A stretch of DNA of 64,000 bases. It comes from an uncultured delta proteobacterium. GTDB lineage: Bacteria; Myxococcota_A; UBA9160; SMWR01. The notes beneath the pieces are model-generated. The model was given only the letters and a program-made list of their open reading frames with translations. It was not told the origin of the DNA and made no database searches. The stretch is taken from assembly GCA_963832165.1 (NCBI GenBank), contig CAWHTE010000011.1, forward strand, positions 832,001 to 896,000. The letters are read 5' to 3'. Both the position numbers and the translations under genes were made by a program. Positions 23,654 to 54,314 of the stretch are shown piece by piece. Positions within the stretch are counted from its first letter, which is position 1. Every line of letters begins with the position of its first letter.

Positions 23654-24829
23654 ATGTCGCACGCACCTGAATCCAGCGTCGACCTCAAGCAGTACGACGT
23701 GAGTCCGGCGCGCGGCTTCCTGCCCGAGCCCGATCCCGAGCCCGCGCTGCCCGCGCCGCTCGCGCTGTGGCAGGAGCTCGCGGGTGAGCTGCCCAAGCGG
23801 CTCGCGGCGCAGCGCGTGCGCGCAGCGGTGCGCTCGCTGCCCCAGTTCGAGATCGCTTCGCTGCGCTCGCCCGCGGAAGAGCGCGCGGCGATGCGCGTGC
23901 TGTCGTTCCTCGGGCACGCGTTCGTCTGGGAAGGCGGCTCTCCGGAGCCCGTGCTGCCGAGGTCGCTCGCGGTTCCGTGGTGCGCGATCGCGCGCCGGCT
24001 CGGGCGACCGCCCGTGCTCTCGTACGGCTCCTATGCGCTCGACAACTGGCGCCGGTTCGACGCGCGCGGGCCGCTGCGCGTCGAGAACCTCGCCATCCTC
24101 CAGAACTTCCTGGGCGGGCAGGACGAGGACTGGTTCATCCTGATCCACGTCGAGATCGAGGCGCTCGCGGCGCGCGCACTGCGCGCCGCGCCGGGTGCAC
24201 TCGAGGCCGCGCGCCGCGTCGACGGCGCGGCGCTCACGGCGCACCTCGAAGAGGTGGCGAGCGCGCTCGAGGCGATCCTCGCGACGCTGCGCCGGATGCC
24301 CGAGCGCTGTGATCCCTACGTCTACTTCGCGCGCGTGCGCCCGTTCATCCACGGCTGGAAGAACCATCCCGCGCTGCCGCAGGGCGTCCACTACGAGGGC
24401 GTCGCGGAGCTCGCGGGCCCGCAGCGGTTGCGCGGAGAGACCGGCGCGCAGAGCACGATCGTGCCCGTGCTCGACGCACTGCTCGGCGTGGCCCACGCGC
24501 CCGATCCACTGCGCGAGTATCTCGACGAGATGCGCGGCTACATGCCGCCTCGTCATCGCGCGTTCCTCGAACACGTAGAAGATGGGGGCTCGGTGCGGTC
24601 CTCGGTGCGCGAGCTGCGCGGTGCGCGTCCGGAGCTCGCCGAGGCCTACGACGCGTGCCTGCGCTGGCTCGAAGCGTTCCGCACGCTCCATCTCGACTAC
24701 GCGGCGCAGTACATCCACGCCCAGGCCGGAGGTGGAGCGAACCCCAGCGACGTCGGCACGGGCGGCACGCCGTTCATGAAGTACCTCGCCAAGCACCGCG
24801 ACGAGACCGCCGCCGATCGCCTCGGTTAG
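23654..24829 (+). CDS. Indoleamine 2,3-dioxygenase (IDO/PrnB-like) family heme protein
   Basis: RGFLP, Y.L.NW, E.WF...HV.IE, GETGAQS, YMP..HR.FL, FR..H and GTGGT.F..YL motifs. Confidence 0.88.
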   Translation: MSHAPESSVDLKQYDVSPARGFLPEPDPEPALPAPLALWQELAGELPKRLAAQRVRAAVRSLPQFEIASLRSPAEERAAMRVLSFLGHAFVWEGGSPEPVLPRSLAVPWCAIARRLGRPPVLSYGSYALDNWRRFDARGPLRVENLAILQNFLGGQDEDWFILIHVEIEALAARALRAAPGALEAARRVDGAALTAHLEEVASALEAILATLRRMPERCDPYVYFARVRPFIHGWKNHPALPQGVHYEGVAELAGPQRLRGETGAQSTIVPVLDALLGVAHAPDPLREYLDEMRGYMPPRHRAFLEHVEDGGSVRSSVRELRGARPELAEAYDACLRWLEAFRTLHLDYAAQYIHAQAGGGANPSDVGTGGTPFMKYLAKHRDETAADRLG

Positions 24830-24861: not shown

Positions 24862-25114
24862 TCGTGCGGCCGGGGTGGTTGGCTTGCTGCGGCTCATGGC
24901 TCGCCGGCCTGGGGGTGACGTTCTCTCTCGCCCGAAGGGTCCGAAGCCAGCGATGGCTTCAGGCTTTCAGGTTGCCGGTCCAACCCAAGTTGCCACGAGC
25001 CCTGCGACGGCCCGTGGCCGGCTGCGCTTTACTTCGCCGCAGCAAGCCAACCACCCCGGCACTCGAACTCGTACGCCCTGGAGGCGTGAACCTCTCAGTG
25101 CGCTAGGCCGGGCG
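24862..25114. repeat. Dispersed repeat copy 1: 192-bp element with 25-bp terminal inverted repeats plus conserved linker
   Basis: 24869-24893 is the exact reverse complement of 25036-25060; near-identical to 52958-53216. Confidence 0.95.
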
Positions 25115-25250
25115 GATGATTTAGTCGCGCAGGCCCGGGCGCAGGCAAGCGGGCGTTGCGAACGACCCGTCGGGCATCGACTCGAACGCCGCGCGGCTTC
25201 CGCGTTCACTGCCGAAGCCAAGGGCCGGAGCGACAAACATCCGCCCGGCC
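25106..25250. other. Structured hairpin module A adjoining repeat copy 1
   Basis: GGCCGGGCGGATG / CATCCGCCCGGCC closing stem with internal sub-hairpins. Confidence 0.75.
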
Positions 25251-25272
25251 CGGGCAACGGACACGGTCAAAG

Positions 25273-25923
25273 TCAGCGGCGCCGGCGCCGGCGCGGGCGC
25301 TCCTCGATCGCCGTGAACAGCGCGCGGTCGAGGCCCGTGACGCCCTCCACCGCGAACGACGCCACGGCTGCGCCGACCGCGTCGAGATCGCGGATGCCGC
25401 GCCGACGTGCATGGCGGATTCCCGCGTTGGAGAGTGAGACCATGAGCGCGGCGAGCAGCTCGGCGCCCGCGAGCCCTCCCTCGCCGTCGCCGACGAGAAT
25501 CGGCCGCATGATCCGCGCGACGCGCTCGATCACCTGACGCACCGCGCGCTCGCTCACCTCGCCCGAGGGCGCCGAGGTGTCGGGCGCGAACAGCAGCTCG
25601 GTCCCGGCGGGGCGCAGCTGCGCAAACTCGAACGCGGCGCGTATGCCCAGCGACACGCCTTCGCGCAGTCCTTCGCGCTCCGCGCGATCGTAGGCGGCGA
25701 ACAGGTGGCGGGTGAGCAGCGAGGCCTCGCGCTCCACGGCGCGCGCGTAGAGCTCCTCCTTCGAGGAGAAGCGCGCGTAGAGCGTCGGCTTCGTGGATCC
25801 CGCGCGCGACGCGATCTGATCGACGCCGGTCGCGCCGTAGCCGTGCTGCGCGAACAGATCCGTCGCGGCGTCGAGGAACGCGTCTTCGGAGATCGGCCGT
25901 CTCTGGGTCGCAGGGGCGGTCAT
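25273..25923 (-). CDS. TetR/AcrR family transcriptional regulator
   Basis: N-terminal AA.DLF...GY..T.VD.IA..AG.TKPTLY.RF.SKE.L HTH. Confidence 0.92.
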   Translation of the reverse strand: MTAPATQRRPISEDAFLDAATDLFAQHGYGATGVDQIASRAGSTKPTLYARFSSKEELYARAVEREASLLTRHLFAAYDRAEREGLREGVSLGIRAAFEFAQLRPAGTELLFAPDTSAPSGEVSERAVRQVIERVARIMRPILVGDGEGGLAGAELLAALMVSLSNAGIRHARRRGIRDLDAVGAAVASFAVEGVTGLDRALFTAIEERPRRRRRR

Positions 25924-25981
25924 GCGCGCTCCGCGCCCGGGCCGCCGTTCGGCCGCCGAGCTGCGATTTTTCACTTGACTG

Positions 25982-40672: not shown

Positions 40673-41539
40673 GTGTTCGATGCGCTCGACCACGTGATCC
40701 TCGCGGTGCGCGACCTCGCGGACGCCACGCGCCGTTACGCGACGCTGTTTGCGCGCCGGCCCTCGTGGCGCGGCGAGCATCCAGGCCAGGGGACCGCGAA
40801 CACGCTGTTCCGTCTCCACAACACCTACCTGGAGCTGCTGGCGCCCGAAGGCGACGGTCCGACCGGGCGCCTGATCAGCGAGCGGCTCGCTTCGCACGGC
40901 GAGGGGCCGCTCGGACTCGCGTTCGCGACGCGTGATGCGGACGCCGCGGCGGCGACACTCGCGGAGCACGGGCTCGAGCCCGCGCCCGTCATGCCGGGTC
41001 TGGGCCGCGATGCCGATTCGGGGCTGATCCGGCGCTGGCGCACGGCGATGCTGCCGCTCGAGCGCACGCGCGGCGTGCTGCTGTTCGCGATCGAGCACTT
41101 GACGCCCGATCTGCTTCCGGAGGCGGGAGCGGTCGGACCCGCCGAGGCCGTGGTCACGGGCATCGACCACGCGGTGGTGCAGACCTCCGACGCGGAGGCC
41201 GCGATCTCGCTCTATCGCGACGGGCTCGGACTGCGGCTCGCGCTCGATCGCAGCTTTCCCGAATGGGGCATGAGGCTCGTGTTCCTGCGCGTGGGCGGAG
41301 TCACGATCGAGGTCGCACAGCCGCTGCAGGACGCCGCGCCGCCGCCCGACACCGATCGGCTCTGGGGGCTGTCCTGGCGCGTTCCGGATGCCGACGCCGC
41401 GCGCGAGCGGCTGGCCGCCGCGGGCGTCGATGTCTCCGAGGTACGCGCGGGTCGAAAGCCCGGCACGCGTGTGCTCAGTGTGAAGGACGGCACCTGCGGC
41501 GTGCCGACGCTGTTGATCGAGCCCGCGGCGCCGGCGTAG
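40673..41539 (+). CDS. Two-domain VOC/glyoxalase-like protein
   Basis: LDHV..AV.DL, G.H...GT.N, YLEL and a second IDH module. Confidence 0.82.
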
Positions 41540-41549
41540 CCGCTCTCGC

Positions 41550-44500
41550 CTAGCGACACCCCTGCGGAGTGCCCGCGCAGTAGCGACCGGAGGGACCCGG
41601 CGTCGCTCCGGGCCGCGCGAGCATCGGCGCGAGGTAGTCGGTGTAGTCGATGTCGTCGACGGCTCCGTCGCAGTTCATGTCGGTTCCGCGTCCGCCGTCG
41701 CGGCCCGCCGCGCGATCCGGCGCGAAATAACCCTCGAGATCGAGCGTCGTCGATCCTGCCATTCTCGTCGAAGTCGCCGTCGCAATGATTTCCGTATCCG
41801 TCCTCGTCGGTGTCGCACTGGCTGCGATTGGCGAGCTCCGTGCAGTTGTCTCCCCAATTGATGTGCGTATCGCCATCGGGATCGCAGAACGAATCAGTGC
41901 AGTTGGGGCACGGGAATGTGCCCGCGCACTCGAGTCCCGAAGGCCCCGGGCGATCCCCCGCCGCAAGCAGCTGGGGCACGAAGTAGTCGCGGTAATCGAC
42001 GTCGTCGACGGAACCATCGCAGTTCATGTCGGTTCCGCGGCCGCCGTCGCGGCCCGCCGCGCGGTCGGTCGCGAAGTAGCCGCTGAAATCAGCCTCGTCG
42101 ACGCGCCCGTTCTGGTCGAAGTCGCCGTCGCAGGAGTTGCCGTATCCGTCGTGGTCCGCGTCGCATTGGCGCGAGTTCGCGACCTGCGTGCAGTCGTCCG
42201 CGCGGTCGAGCAGGCCGTCGCCGTCGCCGTCGCACGCCGAACCCGTGCACGGGACGGGACACGGCACCGTGCCTGCGCAGCGCAGCCCGGACGGGCCCGG
42301 GATCGCCCTGGGCGGCTTGAACGGCGGGCGGAGCCCGGCGAAGTCTGTGTCGTCGACGACCCCGTCGCAATTCATGTCGGTACCGCGCCCGCTGTCCGTC
42401 CGCGAACGCCGATCGCGGGCCAGACGGTTCAGGTCGACCGCGTCCACGCTTCCGTTCTGGTCGAAGTCGGCGTCGCAGAGGTTCCCGAAGCCGTCCCGGT
42501 CCGTATCGCACTGGCTCGGGTTGGCGACGCCAGCGCAATTGTCGTTGCGGTTCACCTTGCCGTCCCGATCGTCGTCGCACATCTCGCCGATACAGTCGAG
42601 CGGGCAGGTCGGACACTTCTGAGGGAAGGGAATCACCGTCACGTCCGCGGCGCCCACGACCCGGTCCCGCCCGTCGAGGTCGAACTCGTCGCAGTCGGTC
42701 GTCGCGAAGCTGTTGCAGCTGTCGGCGGAGAGGTCCTTCCCGAACTCGGCCGTCACGAGCGGCCAATCCGAGGTATCCGGCACGCCGTCGCCGTTGTGAT
42801 CGCCATCGCAGGCGTTTCCGAATCCGTCGGCGTCGTCGTCGAGCTGACCGCCCGTGGTCGTGCGGAACAGATAGCCACCGCGCCGGGTGTAGTTCGCGGG
42901 GTCGTCGAGGTCGTAGTGCGGATTTGCGGCGAGCCGGCAGTTGTCACAGTCATCCCCGACGCCGTCGCCGTCGACGTCGAGTTGATAGATCGTCGTGCGC
43001 CAGAAGATCGTGTTATCGATCGAAGGGCAGTTGTCGCAGAGATCGCCGCGACCATCGCGATCGCGATCGCTCTGGTCCAGATTGGCGAGCTGCGGGCAGT
43101 TGTCGTCGCAGCCGCTCGTGCGTCCCGTTCGACACGTTGCGTCGGATGGCGAGCCCGAAGCGTCGCCGTCGTCGGCGATGCCGTCGTCATCGTCGTCGGG
43201 GTCGCACGGGTCGCCGAGACCGTCGCCGTCGGTATCCACCTGAGAGGGATCCGCCGTGCTCGGGCAGTTGTCGCACACGTCCCCGACGCGGTCGCCATCC
43301 GCGTCCGCCTGCTCGGCGTTGGCGATCGCGGGGCAGTTGTCGCAGGCATCTGCGCGGCCGTCCCCATCGGTTTCGCGCTGGTCCGGGTTCGCGACGGTCG
43401 GACAGTTGTCGCAGGCGTCGCCGAGCGGATCCCGGTCTGCATTCGCCTGATCCGGATTCGCCGTCGCGCAGTTGTCACAGGCGTCCCCGACGCGATCGCC
43501 GTCCGCGTCGGCCTGATCGGGATTCGCGACCGTGGCGCAGTTGTCGCAGACGTCGCCGAGCGCATCGGCGTCGCGATCGCGCGCGTCGGGCAGCACGTAC
43601 GAGAAGGTCGGGGCGATGTTCGACTGCCCCGGGCACCAGTCGAGCGCATCCGCGAGGCCATCGTTGTCGGAGTCGGCCGCTGCGTCGTCGGGGGCGCCGT
43701 CGCAGCGGTCGCCCCGGCCGTCGCCGTCGAGATCGCGCTGCTCCGGATCGGAGATGGATCCGCACACATCGCACGCGTCTCCCGCGCCATCGCCGTCGCG
43801 GTCGGCCTGATCGGGATTGGCCGCATCGCGGCAGTTGTCGCGGAACGCGACGACGCCGTCGGCGTCGCGGTCGGTCTGTCCCTCGGGCAGAGTCGCGGCG
43901 GCTCGGCACAGGCCGTTGCAGCCGTCATCGCTGTAGAAGTTTCCGTCGTCGCACTGCTCGCCCGCGTCGACCACGCGGTTGCCGCAGATGGGCGCCGTCA
44001 CGAAGTGCGCCGTCGTGAATCCGGGATAGGGAGCGGAGAGGACGTCGACCCCGAAAGGCTCGGGGTCGATCTCGATCACGCTGGGCGGCTCGACCGCGAG
44101 CAGACGGCTGCGCGCGTCGTCGTACGCGAGCGCTTCGGAGAGGCGCGGGTAGAACCTCGGCGTGAGCGCGCCATCGGCGCGATTCACGGTGGCGATCATG
44201 GTCGACCGCGGCGGATCCGCGCGCGGATCGGACAGCCAGATCGCGAGCAGCTCGGAGCGCTTCGAGTCGAATGCGAGCGAGCGGACGGCATGGTCGAGGA
44301 TCACGGGCGCGCGCAGTACGGATCCTGTGTCGGGATCGATCTCGATCAGCCGAGCCTGCTCCGGGAGGGCGAGGTCGAGGATCAAGCCGTAGAGGTGGCG
44401 ATCGTCCGAGGCGAAGGTCAGAGCCGCGATGCCCGTGGCAGCGAGACTTCCGACGAGATTCGGAACCCCGTCTGCGTCGAGGCGATAGAGCCGGTCGCCG

Positions 44501-45555
44501 GAAGCATCGGGCGACACGAGGTAGAGCGCGCCGTCGGCCGGATCGCGCGCGAGCCCCGTGATCGGCGCGTGGAAGTCGAGGAACAGGTCCAGCTCCGGGC
44601 CGCTCGTGCGCGGCGTGCTGCGGTAGAGCAGGTCGTGACGGCCGTTCGCGCTCGACTCCACGAGCAGGAGACCCGGAGCGTTCGGATCGACCTCGATCGC
44701 TTCCTGGCATGGAACGCACTCGGAGCGGCTTCCGGTGCACGAGCGACACTGTCCCGGCTCGCTGCAGTCCGCGCCGCGCGAGGGCAGCGAGTGCCCGTCG
44801 ACGCACGCGCGCGCAGCTGCGATGCAGCGGCCCAGGCCATCGCACCAACCGTCGCGTCCGTCGCAGGACGTGAACCTCGCGTCGGGCGTGTAGGGATCGG
44901 TGCTTGGCGGCACACCCGAGCCCGAGATGCAGGCGGCGGTCGTGCGCTGCGCCCCGCGGCGCTTCGCATAGTCGATGTACATCGCGCAGAGCCTCGCGGG
45001 CACGTCTCGAGTCTTCTGACCGGAGCCCCCGAGCAGCGTCTCGTCCCAACCGACGTGATCGAACGGCACACCCGCCAGATGCCCCATCTCGTGCGCGTAG
45101 GTGGAGCCGGCATCCTGCGTGCTGCGGTAGAACCCGGCCCCGACGAACATTCCGAGACCGGGCAACGACGTGTTCGCGCAGCCCGACGCCTCGGTCAGCA
45201 CGGATTCGGGGAACAGGGCCGCTTCGTACGGGATCTCGGTGCTGCACGCGTAGGGCGGCGTCGGCGCCGGGTCGTAGCGTCGGATGTTGGACGCCCGGAA
45301 GCGAACCGGACAGGACATCTCACCGGGCGGCTTGCCGTCGATGCCCTCCAGGATCAGCGTGGCCTCGTCGAGCATCGTGTTCACGCGCGCCGCGGTCTGC
45401 GCGGGGGAGGCGAGCTCGACGTCCGGATGGACGACGATCGACATGTCGAGCAGGTACTCGTCGGCCGGGGGCGTCGCCCACGCTTCACGCGGTGTGACGG
45501 CGCAAAGCATTCCGAGAATTTCGAGAATCAGGTGGCCCCTGGTCAGAGCCGACAT
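41550..45555 (-). CDS. Large secreted modular protein: HExxH zinc peptidase-like domain, Cys-rich region, propeller-like region, thrombospondin type 3 repeats and dockerin-like repeats; +1 frameshift near 41745
   Basis: [21 protein letters not shown]; many DNC....NPDQ.D.DGD..GDAC units. The true C-terminus is in track ORF 41550..42017. Confidence 0.8.
41560..43870 (-). repeat. Intragenic repeats: TSP3 units and three roughly 90-codon C-terminal units
   Basis: Recurrent gcagttgtcgc motif; recurring [14 protein letters not shown] and PGPSG units. Confidence 0.85.
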
Positions 45556-52687: not shown

Positions 52688-52935
52688 GGATGAAGACCAT
52701 GCGCCCGATCCGAATCTTCTGCGCGCTCTCTCTGGTCGCGCTGGCCGCGCACGCGGAGCCCGTCGCGGTTCCCGAGGATCTGCTCGCGGTGTTGACGCTG
52801 CGCGGGAAGCCGTGCGGGACGATCGCCTCGCACGAACGGAAGGGCGCGTCCGACTACCTCGTGACGTGCTCCGATGGCCACCGCTACCGCATCTTCATCG
52901 GCCCCGGCGATCGAGTCGTCATCGAAGAGAAGTAG
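52684..52935 (+). CDS. Small secreted protein with a Cys pair
   Basis: Signal peptide AHA; G.PCG and YLVTC.DG.RY motifs; ATGA overlap. Confidence 0.7.
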   Translation: MRMKTMRPIRIFCALSLVALAAHAEPVAVPEDLLAVLTLRGKPCGTIASHERKGASDYLVTCSDGHRYRIFIGPGDRVVIEEK

Positions 52936-52957: not shown

Positions 52958-53216
52958 TCGTGCGGCTGGGGTGGTTGGCTTGCTGCGGCTCATGGCTCGC
53001 CGGCCTGGGGGCGACGTTCTCTCTCGCCCGAAGGGTCCGAAGCCAGCGATGGCTTCAGGCTTTCAGGTTGCCGGTCCAACCCAAGTTGCCACGAGCCGTG
53101 CGACGGCCTGTGGCCGGCTCCGCTTTACTTCGCCGCAGCAAGCCAACCACCCCGGCACTCGAACTCGAACTCGTACGCCCTGAAAACGTGAACCTCTCCA
53201 CGCGCTAGGCCGGGCG
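52958..53216. repeat. Dispersed repeat copy 2: 192-bp element with 25-bp terminal inverted repeats plus linker
   Basis: Arms at 52965-52989 and 53132-53156; 5 substitutions versus copy 1 over 192 bp. Confidence 0.95.
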
Positions 53217-53349
53217 CTTGAATTCGCCGCCGGAGGCGTTGGTGATCCTGGAGCATATGCGTCTCCGAGTCGGCAACCGTTGTGCTCCGGTGCACCGTCG
53301 TGCACGCCAACGGAGCCACAACGCCGACGCGGCGAATCAACGCCCGGCC
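53208..53349. other. Structured hairpin module B adjoining repeat copy 2
   Basis: GGCCGGGCG / CGCCCGGCC closing stem with long internal hairpins. Confidence 0.75.
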
Positions 53350-53373
53350 CCAGGCAAGACCACCGCGGAATGG

Positions 53374-54171
53374 TTAGGGGACCGGGCCGACGAACCCGAG
53401 GCGCTTCTGGAAGCGCTGCATGCCGACGAGCCAGCGGTCGTAGTCGTCGGCCTTGCGCCGCACGTAGGTCAGCACCTCGGCGTGCGGCAGGATCAGGAAC
53501 GACTCGCGCGCGAGGCCATCGATCACCGCCGCGGCGCAGTCTTCGGGCTCGATCATGCCGTCCGCACGCGCCGCGCCGACGCCCACGTCGCCCACGGCGG
53601 AGCCCGCGTCGGTCATCGCCGTGCGCACCGCCTGCGGACACAGCACCGAGACGCCGATTCCGCGATCGCCGTAGGTGATCGCGAGCCACTCCGCGAGCGC
53701 CACCGCTGCGTGCTTGGTGACGCCGTAGGGTGCGGAGCCGATCTGGTTCAGCAGCCCCGCCGCGGACGCCGTGTTCAGCAGATAGCCCGCGCCGCGCTCG
53801 AGCATCGACGGCAGCACCGCGCGCGCCGCGTACACGTGCGCCATCACGTTGATCTTCCAGATCCGCTCCCAGTCGGCGTCGATCACCTCGACGCCGCCCG
53901 AGATCGCGATGCCCGCGTTGGAGCAGAACAGATCGATCGGGCCCCAGGCGTCCTCGGCGCGCTTCACGAGTGCGCGCACCGCGGCCTCGTCGGCGACGTT
54001 GGTGGGAACGGCTGTGCCCTTCACCTCTGCGGCCACCGCCTCGCAGCCCGCGGCATCGAGGTCGGCCACCACCACGCCGCGCGCGCCCTCGGCCGCGAAG
54101 CGGCGGGCGAGCGCGCGCCCGATCCCCGATGCGCCGCCGGTCACCACCACGTGCTTGCCCTCGATCCGCAT
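53374..54171 (-). CDS. SDR family oxidoreductase
   Basis: [11 protein letters not shown] and YGVTK motifs; GGAGG RBS. Confidence 0.92.
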
Positions 54172-54314
54172 CGCGCCTCCCGAGATGTATGGATGCATCG
54201 TGGCACACTCCGCGCGGCTGCGTTCGCGGAACAGACTGCATCAAGAATGGGAGCGTGCGGGACGAAGAGCGAATCTGGCGTTCGCCATTCGAGGCATCAC
54301 CAGGGGTCCTGAAC

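Follow-up and report, generated by a model that had tools for sequence, protein, structure and literature searches.

The 64-kb stretch of DNA analysed here (the window) carries two copies of a mosaic, non-coding repeat: members of two hairpin families, E1 and M, placed back to back with a spacer of about 45 nt between them. The reading that we favour with moderate confidence is that the eleven copies in the genome from which the window comes (G000) are recent, that they are likely moved as single-stranded DNA by an HUH-type enzyme, and that their alternative right halves, A and B, are exchanged by homology and not at the CTAG sequence at the foot of the module. The parts of both window copies and their surroundings are given below (coordinates, strand, feature).

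23654..24829, plus strand, flanking gene of the indoleamine 2,3-dioxygenase family (context outside the element)
24869..25060, minus strand (the folding face, rich in G·T and G·A), E1, a hairpin of 192 bp whose arms measure 25 bp, from an order-wide family
24896..24903, plus strand, invariant 5′ core motif of the E1 family (ATGGCTCG), the insertion point of IS1111 in a relative in G041
25016..25037, plus strand, conserved 3′ core motif of the E1 family, the insertion point of IS1111 in G036 and G182
25061..25102, no strand assigned, spacer (linker), the left part of which varies by tandem TCGAAC units
25103..25106, plus strand, CTAG tag at the foot of the module stem, kept in 13 of 16 genome copies
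25106..25250, plus strand, module M of subtype A, 145 bp, with a 21-bp outer stem and a branched interior
25251..25265, plus strand, M tail (GGCAACGGACAC), the ragged right end of the composite
25273..25974, minus strand, flanking convergent gene of the TetR family (context outside the element)
52690..52935, plus strand, flanking ORF of 81 aa without a Pfam match (context)
52965..53156, minus strand, second E1 copy, 97.5% identity
53157..53204, no strand assigned, second spacer, with one TCGAAC unit more
53205-53208, CTAG of the second copy, as read in the window sequence
53208..53349, plus strand, module M of subtype B, 142 bp, with arms homologous to those of A, tandem G·A pairs and an interior unrelated to A
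53363..53373, minus strand, probable REP remnant, identical to the tail of a GTAG REP whose full form stands at the corresponding end of a B copy of G000 (C11:536566)
53374..54198, minus strand, flanking convergent gene for a short-chain dehydrogenase (context)

Both window copies lie between the end of a plus-strand gene and a convergent gene. The initial annotation had described a linker that leads into a second module after both repeats, and this arrangement is indeed present in the sequence. So are the two modules of 145 bp (25106-25250) and 142 bp (53208-53349), their closing ends GGCCGGGCG/CGCCCGGCC and the GGCAA behind them (at 25253 in copy A and at 53353 in copy B). The right part of the linker was also found ahead of M copies that have no E1. 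Elsewhere in the window, the minus strand at 41212-45555 contains an ORF of 1447 aa with internal repeats of 69 bp and about 348 bp, probably encoding a repetitive surface or calcium-binding protein.

Folded as DNA, both modules form an outer stem of 21 bp with two unpaired bases in the 5′ arm, which divide it into 13+3+5 bp in A (bulged A at 25119 and 25123) and 9+4+8 bp in B. In module A the loop is bracketed by G·A pairs (25129-25131 with 25227-25229). The stability of the folds corresponds to z-scores of -4.3 for A, -6.5 for B and -6.9 for E1, and 0 of 200 shuffles were equally stable in each case. The stem with exactly two unpaired 5′-arm bases, which had been put forward as a shared feature, thus holds for the window copies but is common rather than invariant elsewhere: the copy at C8:24323 in G000 has one bulge, both M copies of G006 show stem mismatches and no 5′ bulge, and the bulge positions of A and B are unlike. 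The inner sequences had also been called unrelated. This is true of the interiors, whose alignment is no better than that of shuffles (p = 0.55), but not of the outer ~28 nt of each arm, which are homologous and have retained their pairing. For this reason we regard A and B as subtypes of one family of hairpins of about 145 bp, named M. The covariation signal is weak, because both sides change in only 2 of 22 pairs (alignment A2) and the sequences are related. Searches of Rfam 15 at gathering-score and E-value thresholds gave no match for the hairpins, and a catalogued structured RNA was rejected on the gathering score.

The G000 assembly comprises 5.5 Mb in 11 contigs of up to 1 Mb and is 89% complete. 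A genome-wide search and cataloguing of whatever follows the linker, as the initial annotation had proposed, showed that all 11 full copies of E1 are followed by linker and module, namely eight B, two A and one A/B chimera with the 5′ arm from B and the interior and 3′ arm from A. The eight B modules occur in composites only, and their interior has no other match in the genome by BLAST or nhmmer. Modules of type A are additionally present at five loci that lack a full E1: two with a collapsed or decayed E1, one with the linker alone, one solo and one inverted A-A pair. Two partial relics of E1 have no module. Identity among copies amounts to 95.7-99.5% for E1, 92-99% for B and 75-90% for A; A is accordingly old, and the B composites are young. 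At the foot of M the tetranucleotide is CTAG in 13 of 16 copies and CTGG, GGGG and GTAG in one each; E1 has no conserved tetranucleotide at its foot.

The ends of the composites are ragged, with end segments locally duplicated in several copies. No target duplication was detected, as the mean shared flank repeat is 5.2 nt against 5.3 nt for mismatched flanks. We rejected the possibility that the composite is a MITE, given that it has neither a target duplication nor fixed ends. The copies are located 30-45 nt beyond stop codons, mostly between convergent genes; their neighbours are unrelated metabolic genes, and the 11 composites show no replication-strand bias (6 vs 5). The solo A fills the gap between uvrB and uvrC in G000, a gap which is empty in G001. 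The same gap (L087, L370-L373) harbours differing repeats in G000, G003, G004 and G005, so it appears to be an insertion hotspot. It can also be mentioned that a cobalamin riboswitch (L086:1241-1365) lies immediately downstream of the chimera at C4:651285.

The swapping of right halves is real. For each of the three A-bearing E1 copies, the nearest E1 relative is a B-bearing one (3, 3 and 2 differences, vs 5-6 among the A copies), which means that module content has changed more than once. The linker at C5:353155 is identical to that of a B copy as far as the shared arm. In the chimera at C4:651285, B switches to A at module position 21-23, the crossover is placed about 18 nt inside the module, and the stem is mispaired. 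Across E1 and the linker, 43 of 78 biallelic site pairs failed the four-gamete test; these mosaic haplotypes could partly be products of the assembly. CTAG is present in 13 of 16 copies in G000, in one of two in G004 and in neither of the two in G006, and no empty linker-CTAG-GGCAA site was found. The crossover within the arm, the recombination throughout E1 and the linker, the variability of CTAG and bulges and the missing empty site all argue against a precise junction, and the exchange would fit recombination within shared sequence. Hence the earlier proposal that modules are joined near CTAG is not borne out. As for the idea of interchangeable folded cassettes, a dispersed, multi-copy folded family with a shared scaffold and exchanged right halves does exist, but it has two different contents in total, A and B, and does not amount to a library. 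Copies without a module, or modules on their own, had been expected to point to chance clustering of ordinary hairpins. The evidence falls on both sides: A-type modules without E1 were found, as were 194 E1-family loci without a module, yet every one of the 11 full E1 copies carries one.

The two halves of the composite appear to fold on opposite strands. On the strand that carries ATGGCTCG, mismatches in the E1-family arms are A·C in 26 cases vs G·T in 3, and C·T in 31 vs A·G in 1 (one stem per arm cluster, 28 of 33 clusters scored). When all scored stems are taken together (108 of 127), the respective values are 82 vs 13 and 129 vs 4. This excess of A·C and C·T indicates that E1 folds on the other strand. 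There, on the minus strand, its core reads GC-G[CG]A-GC or a close variant, and GC-GNA-GC is presented as a mini-hairpin DNA motif in the sections of PMC13037366 used here. In 19 copies of M, G·A accounts for 53 of 85 mismatches on the plus strand and C·T for one, counts which derive from related copies and are not independent; G·T and A·C are even in the M arms (10 vs 13) and favour neither strand. With E1 folding on the minus strand and the G·A pairs of M on the plus strand, the composite takes the form of fold(-), spacer, fold(+).

The same geometry was found in 20 of 21 pairs of E1-family neighbours situated at most 700 nt apart, with no case of the reverse, and also in both M-M pairs, the first in G000 and the second, likewise inverted, in G006. 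Either a pairing rule or insertions behind both genes of a convergent pair could be the cause. The orientation of E1-family singlets is 5 vs 5 (22 of 132 singlets have both flanks called) and does not separate DNA from RNA. We infer folding as DNA rather than RNA, as well as the identity of the motor discussed below; G·A and G·U pairs suit RNA too. A CCGG stem foot common to the E1 family and M was considered and dropped, being present in 9 of 28 clusters only and so not general. In two inverted pairs (L344 in G006 and L347 in G187), the arms share interior sequence, which suggests local copying or conversion between partners.

Among the genomes searched, the composite is private to G000. M is present in G000, G004 and G006, and its 3′ end also in G002; beyond the genus it was not found in the 101 and 44 genomes searched, where the model search was limited to 30 candidates per genome. 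A covariance model match in G014 was discarded on account of its position inside a coding sequence. The E1 family is more widespread. Its core is invariant, with ATGGCTCG at one side and CT[GC]CGCT..TTC at the opposite one; the arms, of about 26 bp, are specific to each genome, and the interior varies. The 3′ part of the core was detected in 33 of 225 class genomes, 13 of which have at least three matches, the maximum being 34; the counts are pattern-based and thus lower bounds, and a reversed control pattern gave 0-2 matches per genome and 7 in one. A contig search for relatives gave 54 matches. The 5′ motif was present in 22, and 21 of these were retained; the 32 without the motif were set aside, mostly as chance. 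The related records are labelled as Myxococcota or Deltaproteobacteria MAGs. Neither module M nor the linker was found beside E1-family relatives at the 194 loci in other genomes; both halves therefore occur independently of each other. Plasmid and phage collections gave no match, and pattern matches in viral contigs (14 and 1) were judged to be chance, since none had the structure of the element. In three unrelated assemblies (L147, L184, L233) an E1-family element lies just behind a gene for an mglA-like small GTPase, in an orientation that is not uniform. G016 (L195, L345) contains tandem arrays of whole or partial E1-family units, with 73 matches to the 5′ core.

The E1 core also serves as a target for insertion sequences. 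We found 22 IS1111-type loci and examined 18 of them, excluding four short matches. Three of the 18 are inserted exactly in core motifs of the E1 family: one at the 5′ motif in G041 (L339:478-600) and two at the 3′ motif, in G036 (L359) and G182 (L360). These insertions make the E1 family an established repeat target. In G182, the IS1111 element has in its downstream non-coding region guide-like matches of 10 nt and 7 nt to the respective strands of the target, where cross-comparisons average 4.4 and 5.1. In G036 the exact matches are of 5 and 6 nt, with a 9/10 match by eye, and the end of the G041 element falls outside its contig. IS1111 elements are described as targeting REP sequences and attC sites through such guides (PMC11187229, relevant sections). 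With the E1 family, a third type of repeat joins these two as a target of IS1111 guide RNAs. The IS110 elements of G000 do not target E1 or M, and no similarity was seen between E1, M or the linker and the ends of the five G000 IS110 elements and the 18 IS1111-type loci. Four IS110/IS1111 elements of G000 (C2:368246-369373, C5:195716-196918, C1:234460-235497 and C11:96704-97741; L042-L045) lie in attC-like sites with TAAC ... GTTAG-type ends by eye. These sites suggest integron cassette arrays in G000; the C1 and C11 copies encode identical proteins.

A candidate for the motor is present in the same genome. G000 has a single RAYT above the NF047646 cut-off (C4:535321-535956); among the seven genomes of the genus it is the only one to have any. 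The protein is subclass-2.2-like, with the motifs DHLH, FWEH and YVHWNP as in that subclass (PMC6006769, in part). G000 contains 147 complete GTAG REPs. The RAYT gene has GTAG REPs of its own on its flanks, where neither E1 nor M is present. Four of the eight B composites have at their right end a GTAG REP directed into the unit, one complete and three with differing internal losses, and a stretch resembling a REP tail was kept in three further B composites; none of the six A-type ends has a REP. The REP head GCCCTAC occurs within 60 nt of four of eight B ends, as compared with 0.35% of random windows. According to parts of the literature on E. coli, TnpA-REP cuts CT at a distance from the REP and recombines linkers in vitro (PMC3333891) and requires an intact GTAG REP (PMC8266576), and the "atypical BIMEs" are chimeras (PMC3333891). 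Being the sole RAYT of the genus, with REPs at half of the B ends and with such activities of TnpA-REP in vitro, the enzyme is a reasonable candidate for the recent burst and the best that we can offer, yet we name it as the specific enzyme only tentatively. Against it stand the absence of E1 and M from its flanks, REPs that are mostly broken (intact in one of eight B copies) and the few E1-rich genomes with any Y1_Tnp match. The composite likely spreads as folded single-stranded DNA through an HUH-type transposase acting in trans. The RAYT would bind the attached REP and cleave the strand at CT sites, in the manner of E. coli TnpA-REP in vitro, and copies likely swap A and B by homology-driven recombination within the shared spacer and arm.

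No other gene emerged as a cognate enzyme. The remaining transposase genes of G000 inspected comprise 11 Y1-like and five IS110 genes. E1, M and the linker were absent from the RAYT locus (L077) and from the scanned Y1-like loci of G000, G002, G006 and G031. A Y1_Tnp match was found in 4 of 13 genomes with at least three E1-core matches and in 90 of 225 overall, which is no enrichment. NF047646 had no match in G016, G043 (96% complete, one contig), G187 and G041; reverse transcriptase (PF00078) had none in G000 (89% complete) or in four of five E1-rich genomes tested, so that a retron or RT-mobilised element was rejected. IS91-type Y2 transposase had no match in G000, and the control genomes gave no match either. 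There was no cognate enzyme among 55 Pfam-scanned neighbour ORFs (21 genome loci) or among 41 ORFs adjoining modules of G000, G002, G004 and G006, and no recurring nuclease among 622 ORFs near 130 E1-family elements (clustered, compared with 12 Y1 proteins of G000, and searched with Pfam in part). Where E1-family copies are inverted in G066, G187 and G051, the genes that they enclose looked ordinary by eye. Of eight tyrosine recombinase matches in G000, none is beside a copy. No ends shared with an autonomous IS were found among the IS110 and Y1 loci, the families inspected, or by genome-wide BLAST and nhmmer. Thus, the expectation that recombinase, HUH or RT genes would co-occur with the element is answered by one RAYT in G000, but there is no enrichment of Y1, no RT match and no recombinase adjoining the copies. 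The suggestion of an enzyme encoded elsewhere agrees with the fact that no mobility gene stands beside any copy examined; site-specific exchange at CTAG by such an enzyme is not supported. The eleven diverged Y1-like genes of G000 (L001, L003-L010; e.g. C2:485111-485863 and C11:62773-63468) encode proteins of about 230-250 aa with a YVLLN motif. Many of them are flanked by inverted GAGGGAAG-type repeats and not by GTAG REPs, and are TIRtron-like; similar genes occur in G002, G006 and G031.

The same mosaic anatomy could arise if some other enzyme or a host process read the G·A core, the RAYT and its REPs being bystanders. We consider this rather unlikely. It would account for the abundance of E1-family elements in genomes without a Y1 match (9 of 13) or an RT match (four of five tested, and G000 itself), and an invariant core between variable arms and interior implies a specific reader; likewise, no recurring nuclease appeared among the 622 ORFs or the 55 neighbours mentioned above. 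However, the searched neighbourhoods offer no candidate gene for it, mobile genes are often lost from MAGs, and the burst took place in the only genome of the genus with a RAYT, with REP heads at four of eight B ends. It is improbable, in our estimation, that the modules are attC-like folded cassettes whose bulged stem is recognised by a site-specific enzyme, encoded at another locus, which exchanges them precisely at CTAG. The presence of a module on all 11 E1 copies, the prevalence of CTAG (13/16) and of two 5′ bulges, a length of 151-155 nt in G000, the acquisition of A on different E1 backgrounds and the C5:353155 linker, which equals that of a B copy up to the shared arm, would all be expected of such cassettes. 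They have to be set against a crossover inside the arm, mosaicism through E1 and the linker, the missing empty site, a tag and bulges that are not kept in G006, only two contents and no integrase nearby.

We think it quite improbable that the hairpins act as RNA, be it to stabilise 3′ ends, to terminate convergent genes or as small RNAs, with gene conversion keeping the copies uniform. Their position 30-45 nt past stop codons of mostly convergent genes fits such roles, G·U and G·A pairs suit RNA, and a back-to-back unit gives each convergent transcript one well-folding half. Yet Rfam has no match, and both the scattered distribution and an orthologous site occupied by different repeats fit mobile DNA. 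BOX, RUP and IS elements are likewise enriched between convergent genes (PMC3049150, in part), and arrival at new sites is left unexplained. Finally, the repeats could be real and the A/B swap pattern an artefact of assembly or polishing in a mixed population, which we regard as very improbable indeed. The assembly is 89% complete, but its contigs reach 1 Mb against a unit of ~400 bp, the A copies differ by 10-25% and each has unique flanks, and degraded E1-A versions exist at two further loci. The preferred reading thus continues to be a mosaic repeat moved as single-stranded DNA whose halves are exchanged by homology.

Among known systems, the composite is a new form of the bacterial mosaic repeats, a REPIN/BIME-like heterodimer, and not a precise cassette system. 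No published description of the E1 and M families was found in the literature searched, supplements aside. For comparison, we took the BIMEs and REPINs with RAYTs of E. coli and Pseudomonas fluorescens, as portrayed in parts of PMC3333891, PMC3116915, PMC8266576, PMC6006769 and PMC3733652. With them the 11 composites share intergenic non-coding hairpins, inverted pairs and a variable linker. Further common points, again with respect to those parts, are chimeric combinations, stems with bulges and a tetranucleotide at their foot, over-representation at the 3′ ends of genes, the co-occurrence of a RAYT with GTAG REPs in one genome and targeting by IS110-family elements. On the other hand, the halves measure 145 and 192 nt and not 20-50 nt (PMC8266576, in the portion used), the composite pairs two unrelated hairpin families, its tag is mostly CTAG and not GT[AG]G (GTAG in 1 of 16 M copies), neither E1 nor M is found around a tnpA-REP gene, and most E1-rich genomes have no Y1 gene.

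Other mosaics resemble it in part. The neisserial NIMEs (dRS3-RS-dRS3), in the account drawn from sections of PMC1797815, also combine a constant inverted-repeat scaffold with variable cores, of 50-150 bp in their case; new cores were proposed there to come from recombination, and the scaffold is a landing site for a phage-encoded transposase or recombinase. Unlike in NIMEs as covered by those sections, the scaffold of our element is a long bulged stem and not a 20-bp repeat, there are only two cores, and G000 has no long arrays. Streptococcal BOX elements are likewise composites of separately folding modules enriched between convergent genes, but have IS-like terminal inverted repeats and target duplications (PMC3049150, in excerpt), neither of which the composite has. 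The same source, as far as used here, reports the convergent-gene enrichment for RUP and IS elements as well. ISPpu9/ssr9 is similar in that a non-coding module is found at REP-type sites, either by itself or connected to another part (bioRxiv 10.1101/2025.01.17.633520, in part). With integron attC sites the composite has in common a folded single strand, extrahelical bases and a variable interior, and also its use as an IS1111 target, which PMC11187229 describes for attC. The composite differs from ssr9 in having no ends or core dinucleotide that match a resident IS110 element, no empty site and ragged ends.

In attC sites, the R″ and R′ boxes read RYYYAAC ... GTTRRRY, and the cassette carries a cargo ORF. 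The module ends GGCCGGGCG/CGCCCGGCC, in contrast, contain no attC boxes, and there is no cargo ORF, no array, no adjoining integrase and no precise junction, the crossover being in the arm. Lacking both cargo and a precise junction, the composite is no evidence for a gene-cassette system. It does show two long, unrelated hairpin families that were joined, recently multiplied and traded halves, with a testable polarity rule, a named candidate enzyme and substrates whose sequence is known, and it bears on how REP-type repeats spread and diversify. The wider E1 family thrives in genomes that have no recognisable Y1 transposase or RT; either the genes were lost there, or a motor of another kind is at work. 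A bolder extension, which we put forward as speculative and rather doubtful, is that E1 and M might represent long hairpin elements of single-stranded DNA, zipped by G·A pairs, that form a class of their own across one Myxococcota order and are driven by neither a Y1 transposase nor an RT. Its members would pair back to back in a fixed polarity even across families and keep an invariant core while their arms and interiors are replaced, and they would be so old and common that the guides of IS1111 elements spell this core.

Another short, G·A-rich repeat family (GCAAGTTTCGCGCAGCGAGC...) was observed at gene junctions of G000, with 74 matches of a 16-mer, and an IS1111 element of G017 (L349) lies inside a related repeat.
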